DNA of 64,000 nt. Origin: an uncultured delta proteobacterium (lineage in GTDB: Bacteria > Desulfobacterota > Binatia > Binatales > Binataceae). The DNA is taken from contig CAWCDG010000004.1 of NCBI GenBank assembly GCA_963794325.1, forward strand, positions 1,696,001 through 1,760,000, in the 5' to 3' direction. Below the pieces are notes generated by a model that did not search any database, had not been told where the DNA came from, and worked only from the letters and a program-made list of their open reading frames with translations. The first letter of the stretch is position 1, and each line of letters begins with the position of its first letter. Below are positions 32,495-48,093 of this stretch, piece by piece. The translations under genes were made by a program, and so were the position numbers.

Positions 32495-33520
32495 CTACGG
32501 GGCCGGGAATACGTGGCACGACACGGCGTGTCCACCGCGCCCGGTTTCTAATTTCGGTTCGACGTTTGTACAAACATCTTTCGCATAAGGGCATCTTGGA
32601 TGGAAGGCACAGCCGGTCGGCGGGTTCATCGGGCTCGGCATCTCACCGGGCAGCTTGATGCGATCGGGCTTGTGCGCGGTGTCGATGGTCGGAATCGCTG
32701 AGAGCAGCGCGCGCGTGTAGGGATGCCGCGGGTTCAGATAGATCTCGTCGCGCGATGCGATCTCGACAATCTTGCCGAGGTACATGATCGCGACGCGATT
32801 GCTGATGTGCTCGACCACGCGCAAGTCGTGCGCGATGAACAGGTACGTCAGCTTCAGCTTGTCCTGCAGGTCCTGCAGCAGGTTGATTATCTGCGCCTGG
32901 ATCGAGACGTCGAGCGCCGAGACCGGCTCGTCGAGCACCAGGAAGCGCGGGTTCACCGCGAGCGCCCGCGCGATTCCGATTCGCTGACGCTGCCCGCCGG
33001 AAAATTCGTGCGGCAGTCGATCCATCGCGTCGGCGCTCATCCCGACCATCGCGAGCAGCTCGGCGATTCGCCGCTCCTTTTCCACTCCGCGCGCGAGTTT
33101 GTGAATCTCGATTCCCTCGCCGACGATCGACCGCACCCGCATCCGCGGATTCAACGACGCGTACGGATCCTGGAACACCAGCTGCATCTGCTGGCGCAGC
33201 GTGCGAAGTTCCGCGCGGCCCAGCGTCGAGAGATCGCGGCCGTCGAAATAGACTTTGCCTTCGGTCGGCTCGAGCAGTTTCAGAATCAGTCGCCCCAGCG
33301 TCGATTTGCCCGAGCCCGATTCTCCGACCAATCCCAACGTTTCGCCCGGCTGGATCTCCAGGTTGACGCCCGCGACTGCTTTCACCGAAAGCTTTTTCCC
33401 GCCGATGATGCTCGTCGATCCCGCCGGAAACTCCTTGCTGAGATTCACGACGCGAACCAGCGGCGCGGTGGACGCGCTCGCGACAGGCGCGATCGGGTTA
33501 GGCGCGGATGCAGGCGACAT
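32495..33520 (-). CDS. oppF: Oligopeptide ABC transporter ATPase
   Basis: [35 protein letters not shown]. Confidence 0.92.
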
Positions 33521-34460
33521 AGTGATTGGGGGCCTTTTGTTCGAGCGGTGGATCGGCTTCGGAGCATTTGGGGATTGCGCGCGGGCATCGCGGATGGAAT
33601 CGGCAGCCTGACGGCGGACGCAACGAGCTCGGAATCGAGCCGGGGATCGCCTGCAAGCGATGGTGTCGAGTGCCGTCGATGCCCGGAATCGATCCGAGCA
33701 AACCGAGCGTGTACGGGTTGAGCGGATTTTGAAACAGATCGGCAGTCGGCGCCTGCTCCATCACGCGCGCCGCGTAGAGAATCGTCACGTCGTCGGCATA
33801 CTCGGCGACGATTCCGAGATCGTGGGTGACGAGTATCACGGCGAGGCCGAGCCGGACCTGCAGTTCGCGGATCAGGTCGAGAATCTGCGCCTGGATGGTG
33901 ACGTCGAGCGCGGTGGTCGGCTCGTCGGCAATCAGCAGGCGCGGATTGCACGACAGCGCCATCGCGATCATCACGCGCTGACGCATCCCGCCGGACAACT
34001 GATGCGGGTAGTCGTCGATGCGATGCTCGGGGTCGGCAATCCCGACCATCCGGAGCGCCTCGATCGTGCGATTACGGGTCTCGGCGCGATTGGTGTGCTG
34101 ATGCAGCCGGACCGCCTCGCCAATCTGGCTGCCGATGGTGAAGACGGGATTCAGCGAGGTCATCGGCTCCTGGAAGATCATTGCGATGCGCGCGCCGCGA
34201 ACGTGGCGCATCTCGGGCTCGCTCAGCTTCAGCAGATCCTGATCCTCGAAAATCACTTCGCCGCCGACGATGCGCGCCGACTCCGGCAGCAGCCGCATGA
34301 TCGAGAGCATCGACGCCGACTTGCCCGAGCCCGACTCGCCAACGATTCCCAGCAGCTTCCCCGGCTCGACCGAAAAACTAACGCCGTCGACCGCGCGCAC
34401 CTCTCCCGCGTCGGTAAAAAACGAAGTGCGCAGCGATTTAACTTCGAGCAGAGGCTTCAC
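33498..34460 (-). CDS. oppD: Oligopeptide ABC transporter ATPase
   Basis: [34 protein letters not shown]. Confidence 0.92.
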
Positions 34461-34491
34461 GTGAGGTTCAGCGTATCATCGCCGCGCCGCA

Positions 34492-34560
34492 GCCATCCAG
34501 ACGGATGCGACGTGGGGGAGTGGGGAAGGGGAAATCACTTTATCAAATGTGAAACCCGCG
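34492..34560 (+). repeat. 69-bp direct repeat, left copy
   Basis: Identical to 40533-40601 (GCCATCCAGACGG...GTGAAACCCGCG). Confidence 0.93.
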
Positions 34561-34771
34561 TACCGACGCGCGTCCGGTTCCCCTTCCCGCTCGGGAAGGG
34601 GTCAGGGGTTAGGTTCTTCGGCAGGGGTGACCCCTGCACCCAGTGATAAAGTGAAAAGTGAAAAGTGAGAAGCGCGAAATGTTGAGGACAACCGCTTCTG
34701 TTCCCCTTTCCCGCAGGAAAGGGGGAACAGAAGCCACACGGTCGCGACCGAGTAAAATCCGCTGGCGATAA

Positions 34772-36037
34772 CTATTGAACCTGGTGGACGATAGAGCTCA
34801 CGAGGAAAATTGCGAGCGTGTTGGAACCGAATTCCGTCAGATAGAGCAATCGGTGGTCGGGCGATTCGGCCCATTGGCGCGGGAACACACCCGCATCGAA
34901 AGTGCCCACCGTCGCCGCGGCGCCGCCGCTTTTCAGCGCCGTTTCGAAATCGAGAATGCTGACCGTGCCGCCGGCCCCGACACACATATCGAATCGGTTC
35001 GTATTCGCCACCGCCATCAAACGCTTACTGAAAAAAGGCTGAGCGCCATCGGGTTCGATTCCTACCGGCGTGGTCGACAAGAGCGCATTGGTGGGATCGC
35101 TGATGAACTTGCTGGTGTCGAAAGCGAGCAGACTGTCAGAGTCACGCGCGGAAACCCATGCTACCGTATCGTTGTTCGTCAGAATGACCCGCGTCGGGGA
35201 GCATCCGGCCGGAATAGTCGCCATTACCTTGCCACTGTGGATATCCACCACCGACAATGTCCCGGGGGGACCGGGATTCATGACCGGGAGACAGCCGTCA
35301 CTGGCAATCTCGCAAGAGTTCTCGCCCGATAGCGCTTTCTCATTGGTGACGTAGAGACTACGGCCGTTGGCGGAGACCGCGAGTCCGACCGGCGCGCGGT
35401 CAACCAGGATTGTGCCGACGATCGGTTTTGGGCCCTTGCCGGAGGCGAAGGCGAGCGCCTGCTTGAAATCGATCGCACTGACGGTATCGGGATCGCTATC
35501 CTTCTTGCCGGCAAACTCATTGGCTACGAAGATAATTCCGTTTTCGCCGGTTCTCTTGTCGACCGAAATTGCCACCTCGATCGCACTGGAATCGGTATGT
35601 ATCGTTCCCATCGCGGCCTTGGAATCGTCGGCAATCGCCTTTCGCACATCGATAAACTGCACTCCGTCGGAAGTTCCGCCGGAAGGACACGATTTGCCTT
35701 GCTGGACCGTAACCAGCAGATAGCGCCCACCCTTGCTCATCGCCATGCCATGGGCAGAGCCGCAAGTCGAGATGATGCCTTTGATGGTCGCGGAATTTTT
35801 CCTCTGCCGGATTACCTCGACGCCGCCGGTGGTTGTCGTAATGACCATCGAGACAAAGACGTAGCGCCCATCTGCGGTTGTGACCGCCGCGAATGGAGAG
35901 CCCGGCAAGGGAATTTGCTGCTGGACCGGATTGATAGTTTGAGCGGACGAAGGATCCGAAATGCCTGGAATCGCCGCGCACAAAATGATGGCGCTCAATA
36001 CCACGCGGGACCACTTGAATTTATTTGATGATGACAT
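34772..36037 (-). CDS. Secreted YncE/YVTN-like beta-propeller protein
   Basis: Signal peptide; repeated P.G.A.S.DG..LYV and 'TIP.G..P' blades. Confidence 0.8.
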   Translation of the reverse strand: MSSSNKFKWSRVVLSAIILCAAIPGISDPSSAQTINPVQQQIPLPGSPFAAVTTADGRYVFVSMVITTTTGGVEVIRQRKNSATIKGIISTCGSAHGMAMSKGGRYLLVTVQQGKSCPSGGTSDGVQFIDVRKAIADDSKAAMGTIHTDSSAIEVAISVDKRTGENGIIFVANEFAGKKDSDPDTVSAIDFKQALAFASGKGPKPIVGTILVDRAPVGLAVSANGRSLYVTNEKALSGENSCEIASDGCLPVMNPGPPGTLSVVDIHSGKVMATIPAGCSPTRVILTNNDTVAWVSARDSDSLLAFDTSKFISDPTNALLSTTPVGIEPDGAQPFFSKRLMAVANTNRFDMCVGAGGTVSILDFETALKSGGAAATVGTFDAGVFPRQWAESPDHRLLYLTEFGSNTLAIFLVSSIVHQVQ

Positions 36038-36115
36038 TCCCTCTTTGCGGCGAATTTTCGTTTCTGAGATTCGATCCTGCGATATGTAGCCGTTGGGGCA
36101 GTTGCGGCGGTCCCT

Positions 36116-36253
36116 CTACGGCAGGCAGACCGTCGCGGGCGGAGTTTGCTGGAGGCAGGCGACTATCGGCGTCAGGCCCGGAGCCGCCACTCCGACCAGT
36201 TCGGTTACGTTGGCGCCCTCGGAGTTCGGCACCCAGACGTTGCCCGAGCCAGC
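36116..36253 (-). pseudogene. C-terminal remnant of an NHL-repeat-like secreted protein
   Basis: Reads AGSGNVWVPNSEGANVTELVGVAAPGLTPIVACLQQTPPATVCLP* with no 5' part. Confidence 0.6.
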
Positions 36254-36266
36254 AGGTCGCGGGCCG

Positions 36267-37037
36267 TTAATTCTTGGCGGTCGGCCCCTGCTTTAGCAAC
36301 TCCTGGATCTTGGCGTCGAATTGCTGGTAAGGCATCGCACCGACGATGCGGACCCCGTTGAGGTTGCCATTCTGTACGTGCCCCAAGACGAACGAAGGGG
36401 TTCCCGTAATGCCCGCAGCTGTCCCTTCGGCGATGTCTTTGTCGATCACTGCCTTGTACTTGTCCGAATCGACACAGGCCTTGAACTTGGTGACATCGAG
36501 CGACGACTTCCCGGCGTCATCGAGTATTTTGTCGGCTTGTAGCTGGCCCGAATTGGCGAATATCGTCTGGCGCATTTCCCAATATTTTCCCTGCTCGGCG
36601 GCACACCGACCGGCAACCGCGGCGCGCCGCGCATTCTCGTGGAATTCGAGCGGGAAGTCGCGGCTCACGAATCGGAGCTTGCCGGTGTCGATGTAGTTGG
36701 TCTTGATCTGCGCGAACGCGCCGCTCTGAAAGCGCTGGCAGAACGGGCACTGGTAGTCGGTGTATTCGACCAGGACCAGCGGCGCGTTATCGCTGCCGAC
36801 CGATAATCCGCCAGCGGGAAATGCATAGCTCACTTTGCTGTCTACGGGGCCACCCGGCGCGGGCGCGGTCGGCACCAAGGGGCGCTGCTCGAGGTCTTTG
36901 CGAATCGCCTTGAGCTCCTCGATTATTTGCTGCGCCTGCTCCGACGTAATGCTGTCAGCGGCCGCAGGTAGCGCACAAAAAAACAGCGCCACTACCGCAG
37001 CGAGTCCAATTACGCGTCGCCAGGTCTCGTTCATCAT
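36267..37037 (-). CDS. Periplasmic DsbA/thioredoxin-fold oxidoreductase
   Basis: Signal peptide; EYTDYQCPFC, RDFPL..H, GITGTPSF. Confidence 0.92.
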   Translation of the reverse strand: MMNETWRRVIGLAAVVALFFCALPAAADSITSEQAQQIIEELKAIRKDLEQRPLVPTAPAPGGPVDSKVSYAFPAGGLSVGSDNAPLVLVEYTDYQCPFCQRFQSGAFAQIKTNYIDTGKLRFVSRDFPLEFHENARRAAVAGRCAAEQGKYWEMRQTIFANSGQLQADKILDDAGKSSLDVTKFKACVDSDKYKAVIDKDIAEGTAAGITGTPSFVLGHVQNGNLNGVRIVGAMPYQQFDAKIQELLKQGPTAKN

Positions 37038-37374
37038 TGTCCATCCGTTTTGGTTGGTGATTCACTCCGCCGCTCCTCGCGAACCGGCGGAGCCGCCGGG
37101 TGACATACACATTTAAGGCGCGGCCTGACCCACCATTACTCCACCTTACACATAGCGACGGGTCGCTGCACTCACGATTGGGAGATAACAGTATTTTGTT
37201 TGTCATAACAGCACCCTTTTGCTAAAGCAACTGTCGAAACCTCAAGACGTAGGAATCGAGTCCTAAAACGTCTGCGGCTCGCGCGGGAAGCACGACGGCT
37301 TCGCCTCCCCCAAACGCACCAGCCCTCACCTCATCACCTGCAGCAAGTGAGGTAGTGCCTTTTCGGAGGGAGCT

Positions 37375-40300
37375 ATGACTCGCATCGGAATCGTCGTGAC
37401 TCGCTTGTTCGCGTTCACCTGCCTATTCTTCGCCGCGCTGTTGCTCATCACCGCTTGCACGGCGCTCGCAGAAAGCGACTGCAAGCCCGCGGCTCCGCTG
37501 CCGCAATCGAAGTGCAACAAGGATGCGCAATGTTGCACGGGCCTGGTTTGCGGGCCGGCTGGCAGTTCTCAAAATAATGCGACGACCCAATGCCAGCCAG
37601 GCTGCCGCATCGACGGCGTGTTCTATGCGAGCGGCGCCGTCAACGCCACACAGTGCCAGAGCTGCCAGCCCGCAGTGAGCACGAAGGCATGGAGTGATCT
37701 GGGCAACGGCACGAGCTGTAACGACCACAACGCCTGTACCCAGACCGACACATGCCAAGCTGGAGCGTGCGTCGGCAGCAAACCAATCGTCTGCACCGCC
37801 TCCGACCAGTGCCACACCGCCGGGACGTGTAATCCCAGTACGGGCGTGTGCTCGAACCCCGACAAGACCAACGGCACGACCTGTAACGACGGCAACGCCT
37901 GCACCCAGACCGACACCTGCCAGAGCGGCACGTGCGCAGGCAGCAACCCGGTCGTCTGCACCGCCTCCGACCAGTGCCACGTCGCGGGAACCTGTAACTC
38001 CAGCACGGGGGTGTGCTCGAACCCCAACAAGACCGACGGCACCGCTTGCAACGACAACAACGCCTGCACGAGCAACGACGTGTGCACCGGCGGCAGCTGC
38101 GCCGGTACCGCCGTCACCTGTACGGCATCTGACCAGTGCCACGGCGCGGGCACGTGCAATCCGCAGACCGGGTGCTCGAACCCGCCGCTAGCCAACGGCA
38201 CAGCATGCAACGACGGCAACGCCTGCACGAGCAACGACGTCTGCACCGGCGGCAGCTGCGCCGGCGCCGCCGTCACCTGTACGGCATCTGACCAGTGCCA
38301 CGGCGCGGGCACGTGCAATCCGCAGACCGGGTGCTCGAACCCGCCGCTAGCCAACGGCACGGCATGCAACGACAACAACGCCTGCACGAGCAACGACGTG
38401 TGCACCGGCGGCAGCTGCGCCGGCACCGCCGTCACCTGTACGGCGTCTGACCAGTGCCACACGGCCGGGACGTGTGACCCCAGCACCGGCGCGTGCTCGA
38501 ACCCAGTGGCGGCCAGCGGCACGACCTGCGTCAACGCCAACGATTGCGTTTCGGGCACCGCCACCTGCAACGGATCGGGACAGTGTATCGGGGGCACCAA
38601 TGTCGCAAACGGCACTTCCTGCAATGGCGGTAACCTTTGTTTGACAGGCGGAAAGTGCTCGACGGGAACGTGCAGCGGCGGCACCCCTACGATTTGCTCC
38701 GGTCAAGACGCATGCCACACGGCTGCCACTTGTAATCCAGCTGATGGAACCTGTGCTGCCGCCACCCCGATAGCAGATGGCCAGACCTGCAATAGCGTCG
38801 CTTGTCAGGTAGGCGGAACATGCACGGCCGGTGCGTGCAGCGGCGATAAGGCGGCGGCAGGGGGCAAGAAGGTCCTTTGTCGCCCGGCTGCAGTTGGGGC
38901 AGACGGCACGACCTGTGATGTTCCTGAATATTGCGATGGTACGAATGTAACCTGTCCGGCAGATGGTTACGTACCTGCGGGCACGCTTTGCCGAGCCATT
39001 GGGACTAATCCATCTTTTTCTACATACAATCTTTGTGACCAGGCAGAATATTGTACCGGGACGTCGAACGCTTGCCCGGCCGATACCGGCCTCGCGCTTG
39101 GTGTAGCGTGCGGAGGCGTGGGCTGCACTTCGACGGGATTTTGCCAAGGACGTTGCGGTGGAGTTAACGGGATTGGTACCATTGCATGCAGCAGCGATAA
39201 TGATTGCATGGGTCAGCCCGCAACCCGAACCCAATGTCTCCCGAGTACATTTGACCACGGCCTGCTGAAATGTAGCGGCGGATTCAGCGAGCCCAACGGC
39301 CATACATGCACCGACAGCAATAGCGACGCTGGGACATGCGCAGATGGTCTTTGCAAAACGAGCTTTTGCAGCTACGACATCATGTGCCCTGATGGATACG
39401 TCTGTGACTCAAACCATGGTTGCGTCCTAGCTACTGCTGGTGGTTTGGGCGTCTCATGCACCGGTGACCCCACCGGCGCCACCGTCTCCGGTACCTGCGG
39501 CTTTGATCCTGAGATCGGTACGAAAGACGACTGCTGCGCCGGGATGCAGGGAACCGGCCAAGGTGCCGCCGCAGGCCCTAACGTGTCTGGGCGCTGCGAG
39601 CAGTGCTGCAATAGCAGTACGTCAGTTAGTAGTGTTGTGAGTTGTGGTACTGACGATGTAACCCAGTGCTGTAACGGCAGATGCGCCGACACCGCCCACG
39701 ACATCGACAACTGCGGCGGCTGTGCATATACCCCCCCCAGCCTCGGCGGCGGCACCAATTGCAATGAACTCCTCAGTGCTTGCTCCCCGAGTGCGACATG
39801 CAACCCGGATAATGGCGGCTGCATTTTGTCGGACGCTTGTGGCAGCACCACGGACGGGGGCCCGAATATTTGCCAAATCCCGACAGTGACGGTTACGAAC
39901 TCCGCTTGTAGCGAATGCTACGCGACGAGCCTCACCGAGGTCGCAGCACTTGGAGTGACTTTTGGCAGGAATTGTAGCACGGATGCTGATTGCCAGGGCG
40001 TTGCTGGGGCGTGCCGATTCTTCACGAGCTTCTGTGATGCAAACAGCGTGTCACCTGGCTTGGGCTGCTCCTCGAGCACTGGTTGCAGGAATGCGACTTT
40101 TAGCCAAGGTGCATGCAATGTCAATTTCACGTGCCTAACCACACTCGGGGTTACAACTTCTATCGCACCTGAGTGCACCACTTCGCCTTACACGTCCTGC
40201 GGGCTGATTTGTGCTACTGGAACTTTAAGCCAGGGGAACATCGGGACCCAATGTAGCGTAGATTCCGATTGCACCAGTGGACCGGACGGGTACCCCGGAG

Positions 40301-40440
40301 AGCGGTGTGAACTGACCAGCTGTCCAATTTCCCCTGGCGCGGCGCTGGCCACGTCCGGCGGCCCAGTGGCAGCTCAGTGCTTAATTAATGCCACCTACAC
40401 CTGCCAGATACCTCTAGGAGGCGATCAATTCCAGCAGTGA
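37375..40440 (+). CDS. Large secreted cysteine-rich repeat protein
   Basis: GGAGG SD; signal peptide; CND.NACT..D.C repeats; disintegrin-like and STIG1-like motifs. Confidence 0.85.
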   Translation: MTRIGIVVTRLFAFTCLFFAALLLITACTALAESDCKPAAPLPQSKCNKDAQCCTGLVCGPAGSSQNNATTQCQPGCRIDGVFYASGAVNATQCQSCQPAVSTKAWSDLGNGTSCNDHNACTQTDTCQAGACVGSKPIVCTASDQCHTAGTCNPSTGVCSNPDKTNGTTCNDGNACTQTDTCQSGTCAGSNPVVCTASDQCHVAGTCNSSTGVCSNPNKTDGTACNDNNACTSNDVCTGGSCAGTAVTCTASDQCHGAGTCNPQTGCSNPPLANGTACNDGNACTSNDVCTGGSCAGAAVTCTASDQCHGAGTCNPQTGCSNPPLANGTACNDNNACTSNDVCTGGSCAGTAVTCTASDQCHTAGTCDPSTGACSNPVAASGTTCVNANDCVSGTATCNGSGQCIGGTNVANGTSCNGGNLCLTGGKCSTGTCSGGTPTICSGQDACHTAATCNPADGTCAAATPIADGQTCNSVACQVGGTCTAGACSGDKAAAGGKKVLCRPAAVGADGTTCDVPEYCDGTNVTCPADGYVPAGTLCRAIGTNPSFSTYNLCDQAEYCTGTSNACPADTGLALGVACGGVGCTSTGFCQGRCGGVNGIGTIACSSDNDCMGQPATRTQCLPSTFDHGLLKCSGGFSEPNGHTCTDSNSDAGTCADGLCKTSFCSYDIMCPDGYVCDSNHGCVLATAGGLGVSCTGDPTGATVSGTCGFDPEIGTKDDCCAGMQGTGQGAAAGPNVSGRCEQCCNSSTSVSSVVSCGTDDVTQCCNGRCADTAHDIDNCGGCAYTPPSLGGGTNCNELLSACSPSATCNPDNGGCILSDACGSTTDGGPNICQIPTVTVTNSACSECYATSLTEVAALGVTFGRNCSTDADCQGVAGACRFFTSFCDANSVSPGLGCSSSTGCRNATFSQGACNVNFTCLTTLGVTTSIAPECTTSPYTSCGLICATGTLSQGNIGTQCSVDSDCTSGPDGYPGERCELTSCPISPGAALATSGGPVAAQCLINATYTCQIPLGGDQFQQ
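37708..38517 (+). repeat. Five intragenic tandem repeats of 159-165 bp (53-55 aa, 8 Cys each)
   Basis: Units start at 37708, 37873, 38038, 38197 and 38356; units 3 and 4 are nearly identical at DNA level. Confidence 0.9.
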
Positions 40441-40470
40441 GTGACTAATTCAGACAAGCGGTCGTGCATT

Positions 40471-40517
40471 ACCAGGTTGACTCTTACGCGACAAGAACGC
40501 GTAAGAGTCAACCTGGT
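40471..40517. terminator. Perfect 20-bp-stem hairpin downstream of the Cys-rich gene
   Basis: ACCAGGTTGACTCTTACGCG-7 nt-CGCGTAAGAGTCAACCTGGT; no U-tract, so the role is uncertain. Confidence 0.5.
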
Positions 40518-40532
40518 GCTCGCCGCGACGCC

Positions 40533-40601
40533 GCCATCCAGACGGATGCGACGTGGGGGAGTGGGGAAGGGGAAATCACTTTATCAAATGTGAAACCCGC
40601 G
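40533..40601 (+). repeat. 69-bp direct repeat, right copy, followed by a REP mosaic to about 40970
   Basis: Identical to 34492-34560. Confidence 0.93.
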
Positions 40602-41170
40602 GTGGGTTTCACACTTCCTTCGGCAGGGGTGACCCCTGCAACCAGTATCCTACAACCGGTTCCCCTTCCCGCTCGGGAAGGGGTTAGGGGTTAGGTTCTT
40701 CGTGCGTGCGCGCGATTCCGAATACCTCGCCCGTTACTTTACGGGAGAGGCGGCCGGCGGGCGCAGCCGCCGGTAGGTGAGGGTTCCGGGCCACATCGCA
40801 AGAGCTGGCCTAATGACTTTTTGTGTCATTCTTGAGCGCTTCTGGATAACTCCGCTTTCACCAGCCGAAGCCCTGAGCCCAGCCGAGCGGGGAAGAATCC
40901 CGGATTCTTCTTTGCCTCGCTCACTGAAGGGGAGCCGTCGCGACGCGCGTCCGCGTGCGGCGAGTGAGGGACGTTTGCGCGGCGCGATTGTCTCGCGCGT
41001 CGCGATCAGATCCCAAGCTAAATACGAACGTTTGACGTGCGAGAAGTAAAATCAAGGCAAGCAGTTGCCTCGTCACAAAATCGCTGAGGTTTCAGTGGCC
41101 GAATGTTTCAGAACCGTACATCGCACGCGGGAAGGTTGCTCAGTGTATAATTCTGAACCCTAACGCGCCT

Positions 41171-43623
41171 ATGCCAAAGAAGAGAAATATACGGACGCAA
41201 CGGCCAGACGATGCGTTTTCGATGGGGCCAATCTCGTTCGCTCGCTTCGGAAAAAATCTTGTCTGGAAGAGCGATTGGCCTGAAGGCGCCTTTAATGAAA
41301 TGCAAGAGCAGCGAATCCAACACTATCCCAAAACCGTAGAGAAGATTGACAAGCTCATATCTGAGATCACAAGCCTCATCGGCGAGCTGCCGCCTGATAG
41401 GCTTCTACATCGAGCTTGGTGGGAAATGACCCATCTGCACAGGAAAGTTGCCAACGAAACCAGCGTCGCGTCAGACGAGAGCGCTTCGGTTCGAATGATC
41501 GACTACGTTCAAAGCGTTATCGCTGCTGCGCCGCGAGAGCATAGTCCACGAGAAGAGTTAACAGAAGAAGAGTGGGCAACGCTACGAGAAAAGGTCGACG
41601 AGCTTTTCCGAACGGTCTCCTTTGACTATCAATTCTGCCGTACCGCAAAGAACAAAGCCGAAGATCCGAATTTCGACAAAGACTTCGAAGAATTCCGATT
41701 GCGGCTGAGATCTACTGGTGCAACGTCAGGGGTAAGAGATATCAGGTCCATGAAACCGCCTACCTGAAGGATATGTTCCTTCCACATTCTGACGTGTTGC
41801 AGGAACTATTTGGCATCTCTGGCGAGCAGTTCGTCGATGAGATTACTAAAATCTGGCATGTACTATCGTTTGGCATCAGCGATGCGGCCGAGTCATTCGG
41901 TCGATTTCAGGACGATGTAATGGACGCGCTCGACAGGAAGAGGATCGGCTTACCACCGCCGACTGAAGATGAAATGTTAGCCTTGACGTCTGAGGTCGTG
42001 AAGGAACACGGATGGGAAGATCGCCAAGATGACGTTTTAGGCCGCTTCTTTGGTATGGATCTTTTCGATCTTCAAAAAACCACAACACTCCCGCGTCGCT
42101 TACTGGACGAGTTATCTTGGTCGCCCGGAGAGGAAGTGGAATTCTTTGCAGAAGGTGCGTATAGCGGTTGGCCTCTTCGTGTCTGGCCGATCTTCAAGCG
42201 TCCTTTCATCCGATTGGACGGCCGATACTATTGTTTCGATCTCTATAGCCTTCTCGACAATCTTTACCGCGTCATGCAGCGCCTGATCCGAAATCTTAAG
42301 CCATCCTATGAGCAAACTTGGAACCGCATTCAGCAGAAAGCATCGGAAGACCTTCCTTTCAAATACTTAGAGACCTTGCTGCCAGGGGCAGATGTATGGA
42401 GGCAGGTTTACTATCGCGGTAAAACAGTCACGGGCGCCAGCGAATGGTGCGAGACTGACGGACTCCTCATTTATGATGACCACCTGTTCGTCATCGAGCG
42501 AGAGGTGGGGCCTTCACGTACACGCCTCCTGCGATCGATTTTCCTGCCTATGTTGCATCACTTAGGAACCTCGTCTTAAAGCCCGCAACGCAGGGCAAGC
42601 GATTCGTTGAGTATTTGAAAAGTGCCGACGCGGTTCCTTTGTTCGACAGAGATCACAAGCAGGTCGGTGAGCTACGCAAGAAGAACTTTCGCCACATCAC
42701 AATATGCCCGGTAACCCTCGACCCATTCACCGAAATAGCCGCTCAGGTACAACATCTCCGTAAGATTGGTGTCGACGTTGGTTCCGAGCCCATTTGGGTC
42801 GTATCTCTAGACGATCTCCGCGTGTACGCGGACATTTTCGAAAATCCCCTGCTTTTCCTGACACTACGTGGAGCAGAGAATGCAAGGTTTCCGGTCGAAC
42901 GTTATCAGGTCCGACGACGAGCTTGATCATCTGGGCCTCTACCTAAAGCACAACCATTTCACTACCTATGCTCAGGAAATTCACGGTGACTCCGATGCCA
43001 GAATCAGGTTCGTCGGATACCGGGCGAGTATCGACAAATTTTTTAGTGAGCGCATGCTTGACCCAACCACACCCTGCCCTTTAAAGCAGGAAATCCCACC
43101 ACGCATTCTGGAGATTGTCGAGTTCCTATCGCGCAGCAACAAACCGGGCCGCGCGGAAATCGCTGCCTTTCTGCTGGATATTGACGCCGTAAGGCGTACG
43201 CCGGTCGCGAGGAACATCGATGAGGAATTGTTGAGGCAGCCCACCACTAAGCGACCGATGCCATTCTCGATGCATGCTGGCGTGAATCTGACAGTCTTCT
43301 GCTGGACCAACGCTTGGGCCCAGAGACGAGCTCCCCTTGCGCTTTACCACACGCGGACAGTGTTCCTGATCCACGAAGAGTCGCGTCGCCTTTTGCTTGA
43401 ACTAAGTTACACAGACTCCGGCGTTCTCAAAGACATCGACTGGAATTGGGTAGACTCAGCCAGCATACCTTCGCATGAGTTGCCAAGCTTGCGCGCCAAC
43501 GCAGACGGGTTGCGTCGCGAAAGGATCACCAAGGCGAAGGGCGCAAAGGGGAAAATCGAAAGAAACGATCCGTGTCCTTGCGGCAGCGGCAGGAAGTACA
43601 AGCGATGCTGCCTGGGGCGATAG
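41171..43623 (+). pseudogene. Large protein with NERD/PD-(D/E)XK-like motif and C-terminal SEC-C zinc motif, broken by three frameshifts
   Basis: Four collinear ORFs joined by shifts near 41700, 42500 and 42865; ETDGLLIYDDHLFVIE; RNDPCPCGSGRKYKRCC; lower GC than the flanks. Confidence 0.75.
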
Positions 43624-43987
43624 CAAGCCAATGAAAGGGATAGAGTTCTCTCGTTGCTCTCTCTGCGCGATATGCATCGCATCAAGCAATCCTGCTTTAG
43701 TTGTCCCTCACCCGCGCCGGAGGCGCGGCCTCTCCCCACGAACGGGCGAGGCTAAGAACCCAGGGTCCCTCTGCGGAGCCTGCCCTGAGCGAAGTCGAAG
43801 GGGTCGGGATGACACAAGGACTCAGGAGTGGCTGCGCAGGATCCGGATGCGCACCTTGAATCGCGCGCGAAAAAAATCGCGCGCTGAACAAGGTCCCTCT
43901 CCTTAAATCCTCTCCCGTCGGGAGAGGGGAAGATAAGAAAAACACATCGCCTGCTCAGTTTCGGTATCAACGCCAAGCCGGAAAACT

Positions 43988-44015
43988 ATTCGTGTTTCGT
44001 TCTCCTGAACTTTAT
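43988..44015 (+). repeat. 28-bp direct repeat flanking the IS (left copy; right copy 46799-46826)
   Basis: ATTCGTGTTTCGTTCTCCTGAACTTTAT is identical on both sides. Confidence 0.95.
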
Positions 44016-44195
44016 GGGGATTAGTAGTTTGTTGACACCATTCCTGCTAATCTGGCGTCGGCGTGACAGGCCGACGACAACCGTTGACATTCGCACCTGC
44101 TATATTCGCTGTCTGATCGCCTTGCGTTTTTAAGTGCGGTCTATAACCAAGGACGTTCTCCGCTTCGTCGGAGTTCGTGTTATAAGGTCAGCGTC

Positions 44196-45041
44196 ATGGC
44201 AAGATTGCGGTTTCGGTTTGAATTGAGGCGGGACGCCAAGGGCGTCCAATTGCAGAAGCTCGCCAAGATCGCCGAGGAGACGCAACGTTTCTTGCGAATG
44301 ATGGCGAAGGACGTAGAGAACGACCGGCTTCAGGAAGATTGGGTTGCCGTTAATTTCTTGGACCACTCGATCGGTTACGACTTAGAATTCATCGGTGACG
44401 CCGACGAAGACGAAGCACGAATCTTCCGCCGCGCTGTTCTCCATGTTGCAAATTGGACTACGAACGGTCACTCGCGCGAGGGTGTGCAAGGTGTTCGGAA
44501 GGAAACGCTTCTCCAATTCGCAAAGATCGCAGAGCCGCTCGAATCTACAGAGAAAATAGATTGGGGGTTTTTTAACGGAACCGATCCCGATCTTCCTACC
44601 GACGCTCCCTTGGACTGGCGTTCCTTAACTAAGAGCCAGGCTCTCGCTGTCTCTGAGCGATTGAGCCAAATAATTGAATACCGAGGAATGATTCAGGGAA
44701 TCATTCACTCTCTGTACAAAGAATCGTCGCCTCCGTACTTCGACGCTAGGCAGTTATCTACTCAAGATATAGTTAAGTGCTTGTATAAACAGGAAGACTA
44801 CAGACTTGTAGTTAACTTGTTGCAACGGCGGGACGCCGTAGTAATAGTCTCTGGACTCATTAAGGCACGTCGCCTAGATCGCAAAATCACAGAGATTCGT
44901 ATCGAACGAATGCGTTCCACAGAACCATTGTCCGATGCGGAGTTTGCGAAGTTGCAGGGCGCTGCACCGGAGTTGACAGGACGACTAAGCACTGACGATT
45001 TCATTGAGCGCCAGCGCCGTAGAGACAATGGCGACGAATAA
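44196..45041 (+). CDS. IS passenger hypothetical protein (putative antitoxin/partner of the PIN protein)
   Basis: 281-aa ORF overlapping the PIN start; antitoxin-like C-terminal LTGRLSTDDFIERQR. Confidence 0.7.
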   Translation: MARLRFRFELRRDAKGVQLQKLAKIAEETQRFLRMMAKDVENDRLQEDWVAVNFLDHSIGYDLEFIGDADEDEARIFRRAVLHVANWTTNGHSREGVQGVRKETLLQFAKIAEPLESTEKIDWGFFNGTDPDLPTDAPLDWRSLTKSQALAVSERLSQIIEYRGMIQGIIHSLYKESSPPYFDARQLSTQDIVKCLYKQEDYRLVVNLLQRRDAVVIVSGLIKARRLDRKITEIRIERMRSTEPLSDAEFAKLQGAAPELTGRLSTDDFIERQRRRDNGDE

Positions 45042-45600
45042 ACAACAAGCGTACATGGATTCTTGCTGCTTTATCGAATACGTAAAGCACAAGGTGGGCA
45101 TTCCATTAAGTACCGAGCGCGACAACGAAGCTTGGTATATTGGCCAATTGCTACAAGCATCGGCTGACCGAGACATTGAAATATACACTTCTACGTTAAC
45201 CGTCGCCGAATGCACTCACGCTGAAGGCGATATAAGTGATGAAGTTCAGGATTGGTTTATTCGGCTTCTAACGTCGGGGAAGCACGTAATATTAGTAGAG
45301 CCAGATATTTTCGTCGCAGAACTCGCTAGAGACCTACGATGGAGACATAACATTCGCCTAGGGGGTGCGGATGGCTTGCACGTCGCTTCAGGTATCGATA
45401 GGGCTTGCGTCGAATTCTTGACGTTGGAAGGCGAGAAAAAGAATAACGCGATTCTCAGAAACAAGGGTGAGATCGTAAAGCTGGGCATGACTCCTCGGCA
45501 TCCCTCCGATACAACCTGTCTTAGCGAGGAGTACCGACAACAGGTCGTGCCTGGTGTGCCTCCAGCGCCACGAAAAAGGAAGATGGGAAAGAAGAAGTAA
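45028..45600 (+). CDS. PIN-domain (VapC-like) ribonuclease
   Basis: YMDSCCFI, STLTVAE, ADGLHVASG, FLT acidic pattern. Confidence 0.85.
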   Translation: MATNKQQAYMDSCCFIEYVKHKVGIPLSTERDNEAWYIGQLLQASADRDIEIYTSTLTVAECTHAEGDISDEVQDWFIRLLTSGKHVILVEPDIFVAELARDLRWRHNIRLGGADGLHVASGIDRACVEFLTLEGEKKNNAILRNKGEIVKLGMTPRHPSDTTCLSEEYRQQVVPGVPPAPRKRKMGKKK

Positions 45601-45608
45601 GGCGCTAT

Positions 45609-45770
45609 CTAGCGCTTCTGCTTTTGCGCCTTATCGATTTTTTCTTTCGGGACGTTCACCAGGTGCCGCATCATCCGGTCGAATTCTGACATGTCCGCGT
45701 TTTTCAGTGCTTCGCGGAGTTCTTTTGTCTTCGCGCGGATTGACGGGGAATCTGAAGTCGCCTTGGGCAC
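45609..45770 (-). CDS. Small 53-aa ORF downstream of the transposase
   Basis: GTG..TAG: MPKATSDSPSIRAKTKELREALKNADMSEFDRMMRHLVNVPKEKIDKAQKQKR; below the ORF-track cutoff. Confidence 0.6.
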   Translation of the reverse strand: MPKATSDSPSIRAKTKELREALKNADMSEFDRMMRHLVNVPKEKIDKAQKQKR

Positions 45771-45809
45771 GTCGCCACTTTAGCGAATTCACAGGCACGC
45801 GGCTACGGA

Positions 45810-46745
45810 CTAGACGTTTGATATGAGTTCAGCAAACGGATCGTCGTCGTGACGCCGATTGTGCCGATACGTGAACTCCGACAGATAAAGCGGTAAGTAG
45901 TCTTTCGATACTTTATGATAGCTGCCCATGATGCCGCGCCGGAGCAACGACCAGAACGATTCAATCGTCTGCGTATGCACACGACCGCGCACGTACTCAT
46001 CGTTCTTGTGCGTAACGAAATCGTGCTTGAAGCCCATCCGATCCAGATTCCGGTAACGGAAGCTCTCATCAGTCGCGATCAGATCGACCTTACTCGAAAC
46101 CGTCTTTTTGACGAAATCATCATACGTTCGGAAATCGGCATCTTCGACCATCTGGCAGACTACGTTGCCTTTGCGGGCAATGGCTCCGATGACTTCGGTC
46201 TTTCCGACAGGGCCGCGCCGATTGGCGCGTTGGCTCTTGTGCTTGTTGCGCTCCAAGCCGCCAAGGTAAACCTCATCGATCTCGACCACGCCCATCAGTT
46301 GTTCCCACTGCGAATCTTTCATCGCGGCGCGCAGTCTCATGCACTGATACCAAGTCGTGTGATAGTTGTTCAGGTGCTTCGAGCCGTACATCATCCGGTG
46401 AAGCTGGAGCGCACTGATTCCCTTCTTCGACGTGAGCATCAAGTATCCGATTTTGAACCACGATTTGAGCGGGCGTTTCGTGTTCTCAAAAATCGTGTGC
46501 GTGATCACGCTGAACCTGTAGCCGTTCTGCTTGCCGCACGTGAGCACTTCGCCAGTCTCTTTGTTGACCGACTCTTTGCCGCTCTTGCAGACCCAATTGA
46601 ATGGACGCGCCTTGAGTTCGTAAACCTTTTCGTTCCCGCATCGCGGACAGGTAACCTTGCCATCCGGCCAGCGCATATCCTTGACGTACTGGCGACAAGC
46701 TTCTTCGGTCGGGAACCGTTGATCGAAAGCATCTAGCGTTTGCAT
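45810..46745 (-). CDS. IS1595-family (ISXO2-like) DDE transposase with Zn ribbon
   Basis: RWP..CPRCG, KGISALQL, VEIDEVY.GG, TDE, HTQTIESFWS..R, YLSEF.YR.N. Confidence 0.95.
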   Translation of the reverse strand: MQTLDAFDQRFPTEEACRQYVKDMRWPDGKVTCPRCGNEKVYELKARPFNWVCKSGKESVNKETGEVLTCGKQNGYRFSVITHTIFENTKRPLKSWFKIGYLMLTSKKGISALQLHRMMYGSKHLNNYHTTWYQCMRLRAAMKDSQWEQLMGVVEIDEVYLGGLERNKHKSQRANRRGPVGKTEVIGAIARKGNVVCQMVEDADFRTYDDFVKKTVSSKVDLIATDESFRYRNLDRMGFKHDFVTHKNDEYVRGRVHTQTIESFWSLLRRGIMGSYHKVSKDYLPLYLSEFTYRHNRRHDDDPFAELISNV

Positions 46746-46752
46746 ACTGATC

Positions 46753-46781
46753 AGAATAGCGGATTAGCGAGTCGGTGTCAA
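46753..46781 (-). promoter_or_regulatory. Sigma70-type transposase promoter with the -35 inside the TIR; probably leaderless
   Basis: Minus strand TTGACA-17 nt-TATTCT-7 nt-ATG. Confidence 0.7.
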
Positions 46782-46835
46782 CAGCCTACTAATCCCCGAT
46801 TCGTGTTTCGTTCTCCTGAACTTTATTGCCAAAAA

Positions 46836-46851
46836 CGTTTCACGTGAAACG
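46836..46851. promoter_or_regulatory. parS: parS centromere site 1
   Basis: CGTTTCACGTGAAACG matches the tGTTtCACGTGaAACa consensus; within a perfect 28-bp palindrome 46830-46857. Confidence 0.9.
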
Positions 46852-46970
46852 TTTTTGCACAAAAAGCGAACAAAATCAGGCGCTTGTGAAATCTGAAACC
46901 CGGGAATCGCACCAATTTAATGTGACGATCGGTCGGCGCCGATCAACTCGATGTTATCGGCGTCCGAAAA

Positions 46971-46986
46971 CGTTTCACGTGAAACG
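46971..46986. promoter_or_regulatory. parS: parS centromere site 2
   Basis: CGTTTCACGTGAAACG within a 24-bp palindrome 46967-46990. Confidence 0.9.
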
Positions 46987-47009
46987 TTTTGCTCCTGGAC
47001 GCCGGTTAA

Positions 47010-48093
47010 TCAGGTGGCGTTAGCGGGGTCCAGGCGGTCTCTTAGGTGGTCGCCCAGGAAGTTAAACGACATTACGGCCAGGAAGATGAAGATTCCCGGG
47101 ATTAAGATCCAGGGGTAGCGGGCCAGGTTTTGGACGTCCTGGGCTTGGGCCAGGAGGTTGCCCCAGCTGGCGGCGGGTTCCTGGATGCCGAGGCCCAACA
47201 GCGACAGGGCGCTTTCGCCTAAGATGAAGCCGGGGATTGAGAGGGTGGCGGCGACGATTGCGTAGCCCATCACCGACGGGATGATGTGGCGGGTGATGAT
47301 GCGCCATCGCGAGGCGCCGAGCGCGCGGGCTGCTTCGACGTACGGCCGCGAGCGCACCGAGGACGCCATCCCGCGGATGATTCGCGCGAAGCCGGCCCAA
47401 CTGATGAAGCTCATGATCGCGACGATCATGAAAAACGTCGCGACCGCGCCAAGTCCCGACGGAATCACCGCCGCGAGCGCCAGTAAAAAATAGAATGACG
47501 GCAGCGACATCTCGATTTCGGACCATCGCATGATCAGGAAATCGACTGTGCCGCCGATGTATCCCGACAGCGCGCCGACCGTGATGCCCAGTGAAAAAGT
47601 GATCAGCACGCCGATCAGCCCGACGCACATGCTCACGCGCGAGCCGTAAACGATTCGCGACCAAAGGTCGCGGCCCAAGGCCGTCGCTGCCGAGCATGAA
47701 GTACGGCACGCGCTCGCTGTCAGTGGTGAACAGGTGCCAGTGCGAGAACAGGTGGATGTCGAGCCGCTGCGAATTGTCGGCGGCGAAGGTGCGCGCACTG
47801 CTGTCCTGCATATGCATCGGATGCGTATAGAAAATACTGCGCGACCATTCGGACGGCGCGCTCAGGTGAAGCGACATCGGCGGACAATCGGGCATCTCGC
47901 GATTCTGATACGCGGGATCGTAGCTCGCGAAGAACGGCGACGCAGCGGCGAGCAGGTAGAATACGGCGAGGCAGATTGCGGAAAAGCGCACCGTCCGCGA
48001 CGCGAGACGCCACTCGCGCGCGATGCTCAATGTTCTCGGCGCGGATACCTCAGCGCCTTGTAGATTTGCCTGCAATGCGGGAACGGCGTTCAT
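47010..48093 (-). CDS. oppC: Oligopeptide ABC permease with a single frameshift near 47680 (likely sequence error)
   Basis: LGSDG|LGRD split across two frames; YVEAARALGAS, HIIP, E.ALS.LGLG. Confidence 0.85.

Follow-up and report, generated by a model that had tools for sequence, protein, structure and literature searches.

IS1595-family insertion sequences at a conserved host box beside dispersed parS sites in Candidatus Binataceae, and a single copy flanked by a 28-bp direct repeat

The IS1595 family of insertion sequences (IS), a family of ISfinder, was reportedly described by Siguier, Gagnevin and Chandler in 2009, and some of its subgroups carry passenger genes. IS1397 and ISKpn1, which belong to the IS3 family, target the palindromes of repetitive extragenic palindromic (REP) sequences and bacterial interspersed mosaic elements (BIME). 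Tn5053/Tn402, the "res-site hunters," and Tn7 at attTn7 employ dedicated targeting proteins and multi-gene transposition modules. Long and variable direct repeats are the rule for IS1634/IS1549-type elements of the IS4 family. In one report (PMC12561309), which refers to that 2009 description as its reference 22, A/T-rich direct repeats of 8 bp are given for ISApl4, an IS1595/IS1016 element, and repeats of 7-9 bp are quoted for IS1016 elements. Here, we analyzed an IS1595-family element located in a stretch of 64,000 nucleotides (the window; contig CAWCDG010000004.1 of GCA_963794325.1, positions 1,696,001 to 1,760,000) from an uncultured delta proteobacterium. The element lies beside a parS site and is flanked by a 28-bp direct repeat. 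It belongs to a clade whose members sit at one position of a host motif, termed the box, that accompanies parS on these chromosomes.

The element was delimited by a repeat search of window positions 43500-47500 and comprised 2,782 bp (44016-46797). Its assignment to the IS1595 family, proposed in the original prediction from the nucleotide sequence, was verified by its 24-nt inverted ends and by matches of the transposase to Pfam DDE_Tnp_IS1595 (PF12762; E 1e-36, 126.7 bits), Pfam Zn_ribbon_IS1595 (PF12760; E 2.7e-13, residues 12-55), and NCBIfam transpos_IS1595 (NF033547; E 6.8e-50, 169.9 bits, cut-off 75). The element thus has the DDE transposase, the N-terminal zinc ribbon, and the short terminal inverted repeats of the family, and 8-bp duplications were found in its sisters, whereas the window copy itself lacks a duplication of ~8 bp. 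In the same search, an exact 28-nt direct repeat was seen on both sides of the element (Table 1). A single g parts the right IS end from the right repeat copy. The 16-mer CGTTTCACGTGAAACG starts 9 bp past this copy and matches, at the central 14 positions, the chromosomal parS consensus, which we take to be tGTTTCACGTGAAACa. A second parS-like palindrome is situated 144 bp beyond the right copy, resulting in a start-to-start spacing of 135 bp between the two. The repeat, the odd base, and both parS distances were all found as originally predicted.

Sites without the element were identified both in the same genome and in a relative. At a paralogous site of the window genome (G000:C4:1893164-1893334), one box is directly followed by parS, no IS is present, and both flanks are homologous to the flanks in the window. 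This site contains the third copy of the 28-mer (G000:C4:1893307-1893334), which deviates slightly from the other two and lies 150 kb from the window element. When all 47 genomes of the genus were searched with the left flank, the SEC-C-motif gene that precedes the element was detected in two of the 46 others, G008 and G050, and only in G050 is it followed by box and parS. There, a SEC-C gene 75% identical over 2,143 nt precedes a single box-parS. Because the paralogue and the G050 orthologue each contain one box, we deduced that one box was present before insertion and that the duplication arose with the IS. This agrees with the proposal that the 28-mer is duplicated target DNA external to the element, and the G050 site is the empty allele with a single copy beside parS that had been expected in related genomes. 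An exact 25-nt word of the left flank had no match in metagenome_contigs.

The 28-mer is host DNA, consisting of a conserved box of about 20-22 nt plus 8 bp. Allowing up to 3 mismatches, it occurred at three places in the whole genome, i.e. the two window copies and the paralogue, and the 14-mer GTTTCACGTGAAAC occurred at 11 places; the reversed controls gave 0 in either case. Six of the 11 parS 14-mers in the window genome have a box of ~22 nt upstream at a fixed distance (G000:C2:207558, C2:653474, C3:424930, C4:1893282, C7:260340, and window 46799-46851). Scanning the same genome for the box with at most 5 mismatches of 22 yielded 8 places (reversed control 0), of which 6 adjoin parS, 1 is the left copy split off by the IS, and 1 is a degenerate site. 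The module is made up of the conserved box (TTCGYGTTTYGTTCTCCTG, ~20 nt), a spacer of a few bases, and the parS palindrome, and it is dispersed over the chromosomes of the genus. The relatives compared were soil metagenome-assembled genomes (MAGs) of Candidatus Binataceae from the same genus as the window genome. In one closed relative, G007, 17 parS cores were present. Three of them lie by parB without a box, a sister IS sits in one, and all of the remaining 13 have a box with no more than 2 mismatches and are unoccupied. At least four module sites have flanks common to G007 and G018, showing that the modules are conserved chromosomal features rather than fast-moving repeats. The box-parS module is thus an undescribed conserved feature spread round these chromosomes.

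Further dispersed parS sites with a box were observed at L096-L119, often with conserved downstream sequence as well. The dispersed sites occupy syntenic intergenic positions across species, all round the chromosome. At G000:C3:124590, orthologous to a module of G007 and G018, a degenerate box (5 mismatches) without parS was seen, indicating that modules can decay. Searches of Rfam with the modules gave no fitting family, the sole matches being hairpin noise in L006, and no tRNA or tmRNA was found as a possible target between window positions 40000 and 50000. Single-strand folding of the module predicted an extended parS palindrome and, within the box, a mini-hairpin of 4 bp (GTTC/GAAC). A hairpin-loop target was not supported for the module, as the insertion point falls at the edge of the stem and not in the loop.

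To compare insertions, transposase homologues were located in 41 relatives, and DNA was fetched around those that were at least 49% identical; 78 further loci from the genome collection were added. Ends and flanks were determined by script. The tallies of homologues and flanks, and one permease locus discussed below, include the unpublished genomes G024 and G019, and the conclusions are independent of both. Thirteen sisters with both junctions resolved (L031, L032, L033, L034, L036, L037, L038, L048, L056, L090, L093, L094, and L172) sit between box and parS. The duplication was 8 bp long in all 13, with one mismatch in L093 and L094. It started directly after the CCTG of the box in 10 of them and 2 nt further in the other three, which represent one clade. 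Duplications placed directly after CCTG (AACTAAAA, AACTAAAG, AACTCTCC, and similar) have the form AACTNNNN, and the gap between duplication and parS core was 0-14 nt in the 13 sisters. Since these elements occur in both orientations and their outer flanks are unlike, the insertions are independent events. The 8-mer AACTTTAT and the TTGCC spacer of the window recur in L048, and the junction in the window between the left 28-bp copy and the IS is at the canonical position. The 13 sisters and this left junction together document independent insertions that reach the same position of a dispersed host motif, with the elements facing either way. In another four elements (L035, L181, L198, and L199), a single end could be read, and it lies at box-parS; L198 and L199 are metagenome copies with identical transposase-proximal ends, and L199 lies 15 nt from a parS-like core. 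The box-parS calls for L036 ("unk" in the tree) and L035 rest on manual reading of the junctions. All seven members of the window clade are located at box-parS.

A census covered 80 elements whose ends were credible. The longest flanking repeat was 8 bp in 30 of them, and a value of 28 was obtained for the window copy only; values of 9-17 in this census reflect overlap with the element ends. With 8 bp in every one of the 13 sisters, the clade fits the ~8-bp duplication of the family and the window copy is the exception. A long and variable duplication is not the normal outcome in this group, and the 28-bp duplication, seen in 1 of 80 elements, is an isolated event that does not mark parS targeting. 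The original prediction had proposed that homologues be surveyed for repeat length and distance to parS, and one part of its expectation held: relatives are systematically found beside parS. The other part, a long duplication as the result of a parS-adjacent target, failed at the same 13 sites.

The comparison with described systems is mixed. The clade deviates from the IS1595 family as described in that it is sequence-specific for a host repeat and not merely A/T-preferring, and in the 28 bp of the window copy. Like IS1397 and ISKpn1, it has inserted time and again, in numerous genomes, at a single position within a host motif that is dispersed between genes and makes a harmless landing site. 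It differs from them in belonging to IS1595 rather than IS3, in a motif that flanks parS, and in an insertion point that lies beside a small hairpin and not in its loop. A specific conserved target is also common to Tn5053/Tn402 and Tn7, and for Tn5053/Tn402 this target carries a partition- or resolution-related protein. In contrast to those transposons, no more than one transposase and a small conserved open reading frame (ORF) were seen in the window element. The window copy resembles IS1634/IS1549-type elements in a target duplication of tens of bases made by a DDE transposase, but its long repeat is confined to 1 of the 80 related elements.

The register of insertion follows the box and not parS. 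In addition, three close relatives (L050, L045, and L058) occupy box-like motifs whose surroundings are free of parS for 120 nt, and the ends of L058 are the same as those of L056, which resides in a box-parS module. Thus, parS or ParB need not be the determinant. The box is the likelier determinant, with parS as its constant neighbor, and the transposition complex would read the box. The parS association of the element is systematic, though probably indirect. Module targeting was clustered when mapped on a tree built from 129 distinct transposases, requiring 11 changes as opposed to 17.1 in shuffles; none of 500 shuffles was as low.

Taken together, we favor, with a probability of about 0.62, the view that the element belongs to a site-specific, box-reading IS clade and that the window copy arose from a single aberrant, probably non-concerted integration. 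The distal IS end would have been joined at the canonical place, and the transposase-proximal end 20-21 bp (about two helical turns) farther out, on the outer margin of the box. Repair of the gap would then have copied the complete box together with the canonical 8 bp, i.e. 28 bp, and one odd base, leaving a solo box at the left and an intact box-parS module at the right. The right junction indeed contains 21 extra bases, the g and a 20-nt box. The outer limit of the 28-bp repeat coincides within 1 nt with the start of module conservation, which fits a complex sitting on the box. One may speculate that the regenerated intact module favored retention of the copy with the long duplication.

Several points weigh against this account. 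Module targeting is found in several transposase clades that are interleaved with clades using other targets, and no single feature of the transposase is tied to it. In the window genome, every box (at most 5 mismatches of 22) adjoins parS, with the IS-split copy and the degenerate site as the sole exceptions, so that natural data cannot fully separate the two, and ParB might contribute to targeting. There is a single long duplication, whose origin at insertion we infer, and the extra g at its edge has no explanation; the base preceding the box is t at the left copy in the window, T at the orthologous empty site of G050, and G at the paralogue in the same genome. No read or contig was found across either junction. 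Finally, we know of no characterization of the chemistry of IS1595 transposition.

The main rival is a two-step history, in which a canonical 8-bp insertion was followed by a second event at the proximal end that added the g and 20 nt of box, for instance template switching, or the repair of a break left by abortive excision with the sister chromosome as template. The exactly canonical left junction, the restriction of the extra segment to the right junction, and its unexplained first base would all be accommodated. The two 28-mer copies are identical to each other and unlike every paralogue in the genome, so the template would have been local. Yet this history invokes two events where one suffices, no repair footprint is visible, and nothing comparable was seen among the 80 related elements. 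We regard it as possible, though unlikely.

Still less probable is the explanation put forward originally, namely that ParB at parS, or DNA bent there, directs the complex and that the long duplication stems from a staggered cut across this nucleoprotein target. Every member of the window clade lies 0-15 nt from an intact parS, and parS was never disrupted. The additional 20-21 bp would also be compatible with same-face attack on a bent or covered target, and box and parS are, as stated, inseparable in the window genome. Sisters at like sites nevertheless made 8-bp duplications without exception, the register tracks the box, and close relatives use box-like motifs without parS; moreover, the displaced junction is found across the box from parS, with 39 nt between it and the parS core. 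A ParB-occupied or bent target is an improbable cause of the 28 bp.

That the right box copy was created by the assembler appears very unlikely. The genome is a MAG of 85% completeness in 10 contigs, and no independent contig spans the junctions; it would, however, be unusual for an assembler to put an exact copy of 28 nt right at the end of an IS. Run X1, a soil metagenome that is possibly the source sample, contained a quarter of the sampled words in short contigs of low depth. None of its contigs over the window stretch bridges either junction, but one short contig corresponds without difference to 43907-44017, i.e. the left box and the first two IS bases, a support that is not independent if X1 is the source. 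The notion that the 28-mer belongs to the ends of the element and moves with it, suggested by the box-like sequence abutting one end of every sister, can be dismissed: in the sisters, the box lies on a single side and parS on the opposite one, and the element is bracketed by an 8-bp duplication; the box adjoins either IS end according to orientation; and modules without IS are numerous (13 unoccupied dispersed sites in G007 versus 1 occupied).

The site had been described as origin-proximal. parB is located at C4:1040352, dnaA at C4:1080787, and the IS at C4:1740016. Four parS sites without a box (C4:1042130-1043315) are found 1.5-3 kb away from parB and some 40 kb away from dnaA, whereas the element and the parS sites in the window are 660-700 kb from both genes. 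The site is thus not origin-proximal. In G007, 14 of the 17 parS sites are scattered round the chromosome, including positions opposite the origin.

In other clades of the transposase group, 8-bp target site duplications (TSD) were observed in REP-like hairpin loops (ccccttccc-TSD-gggaagggg) or at a ttcgctctttcttcgcct or cttcgcataagaaatattatgtcaACT motif (L041, L042, L046, L060, L065, L068, L072, L075, L079, L081, L082, L084, L086, L087, and L091). The whole group appears to be target-specific, with targets switching. At L139 and L146, different elements are arranged head to tail at one target, the second having inserted into the duplication regenerated by the first (ACTTGTGG / ACTTGAGG). The small ORF just downstream of the transposase gene encodes a motif resembling ADMxxFDRxxRxLVxVPK and is kept in many related elements irrespective of target; its product may be an accessory protein. 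As a candidate targeting factor it is unconvincing, because clades that use other targets retain it as well and its presence thus leaves the specificity unexplained.

The features of the element and its surroundings are compiled in Table 1. It is a passenger-carrying IS1595 insertion sequence with a transposase, the small conserved ORF, and a two-gene cargo encoding an unknown protein and a PIN-like protein. The window genome harbors one full copy and a degraded relative on contig 3. Among the annotated transposases of the plasmid collection, the nearest were at most 37% identical to the window transposase. Passenger gene A had no match among Pfam, NCBIfam, and PADLOC families. Its nearest Atlas clusters are unnamed hypothetical proteins, and homologues of 268-284 amino acids are equivalently placed in the sister elements of G018 and G017. 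Gene B has an in-frame ATG at 45028, overlapping the end of gene A. Its match to Pfam PIN (E 0.002) was below the cut-off, and its counterpart in the G018 sister clears it (38.5 versus 23.6 bits). The PADLOC and NCBIfam search of the cargo in the window retrieved nothing. Cargo varies among sisters at like sites (L031-L038, L048, and L056): an unknown protein plus PIN in the window, G018, and G017; DUF3800 proteins in G004, G014, and G013; and HARE-HTH proteins in G011 and G009. PADLOC recognized none of these three kinds of cargo.

Table 1. Features of the IS1595-family element and its flanks (window positions)
Feature	Position	Strand	Basis or remarks
Left 28-bp repeat copy	43988..44015	+	Host box ATTCGTGTTTCGTTCTCCTG plus AACTTTAT; AACTTTAT is the 8 bp duplicated by sisters
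Terminal inverted repeat, end distal to transposase gene	44016..44039	+	24 nt, 92% complementary
Passenger gene A, 281 amino acids, no family recognized	44196..45041	+	ORF
Passenger gene B, PIN-like, 198 amino acids from TTG	45004..45600	+	Weak Pfam PIN match
Small ORF, 53 amino acids, basic C terminus, just downstream of transposase gene	45609..45770	-	ORF
IS1595-family DDE transposase, 311 amino acids, intact, N-terminal zinc ribbon	45810..46745	-	Pfam, NCBIfam
Terminal inverted repeat, transposase-proximal end	46774..46797	+	24 nt, 92% complementary; inward-facing TTGACA inside
Extra base g between IS end and right repeat copy	46798..46798	+	Sequence reading
Right 28-bp repeat copy	46799..46826	+	With downstream sequence, unbroken box-parS module
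parS-like 16-mer CGTTTCACGTGAAACG	46836..46851	.	14-mer core 46837-46850; within longer palindrome
Second parS-like 16-mer	46971..46986	.	No box adjoining

The element is part of a 12.5-kb insert (window 34479-47008) that splits an oligopeptide-type ATP-binding cassette (ABC) transporter operon between an ATPase gene (read both as 32976-34478 and as 33498-34460) and a permease gene (47010-47798). In 9 of 11 loci of relatives, the ATPase gene directly follows the permease gene without a module, so that no empty allele was obtained from the permease side; one of the two exceptions, L016, comes from the unpublished genome G024. Since ATPase and permease genes adjoin in these nine loci, the insert is peculiar to the window genome. 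Besides the box-IS-parS region, it contains a DsbA-like thioredoxin gene, an ORF of 1021 amino acids, and the SEC-C-motif gene; an integrase was not seen in it. The SEC-C-motif gene (41485-43623) is represented by three overlapping or adjacent ORFs (41773-42579, 42615-42926, and 42868-43623), and its alignment of 2,143 nt with G050 runs through a single uninterrupted stretch there. The gene may be frameshifted in the window genome or in the assembly.

A more far-reaching interpretation, which we consider doubtful, is that box-parS is a chromosomal docking site at which a ParB-parS complex with a box contact organizes about a dozen conserved points of the chromosome, and that a radiation of cargo-carrying IS1595 elements reads this complex as an attachment site. 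If so, PIN, DUF3800, and other selfish or defense cargo would have a safe site that is possibly silenced by ParB, and the 28-bp duplication would represent integration across a protein-covered box, kept because the intact module was regenerated. The 28-bp duplication by itself carries lesser weight. It serves as an example of aberrant integration and as a caution against taking one long repeat as a family trait. IS1595 elements are generally described with 8-bp duplications in A/T-rich DNA and without a defined target, and full-text literature searches retrieved no paper linking them to parS or to a defined target. The element studied here is a new site-specific variant within a known IS family. 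It stands for a whole clade with varied cargo that occupies one nucleotide position of a parS-accompanying host motif in an uncultured soil phylum, and thus provides an example from nature of DDE transposition that is directed by sequence to a target both short and definable.

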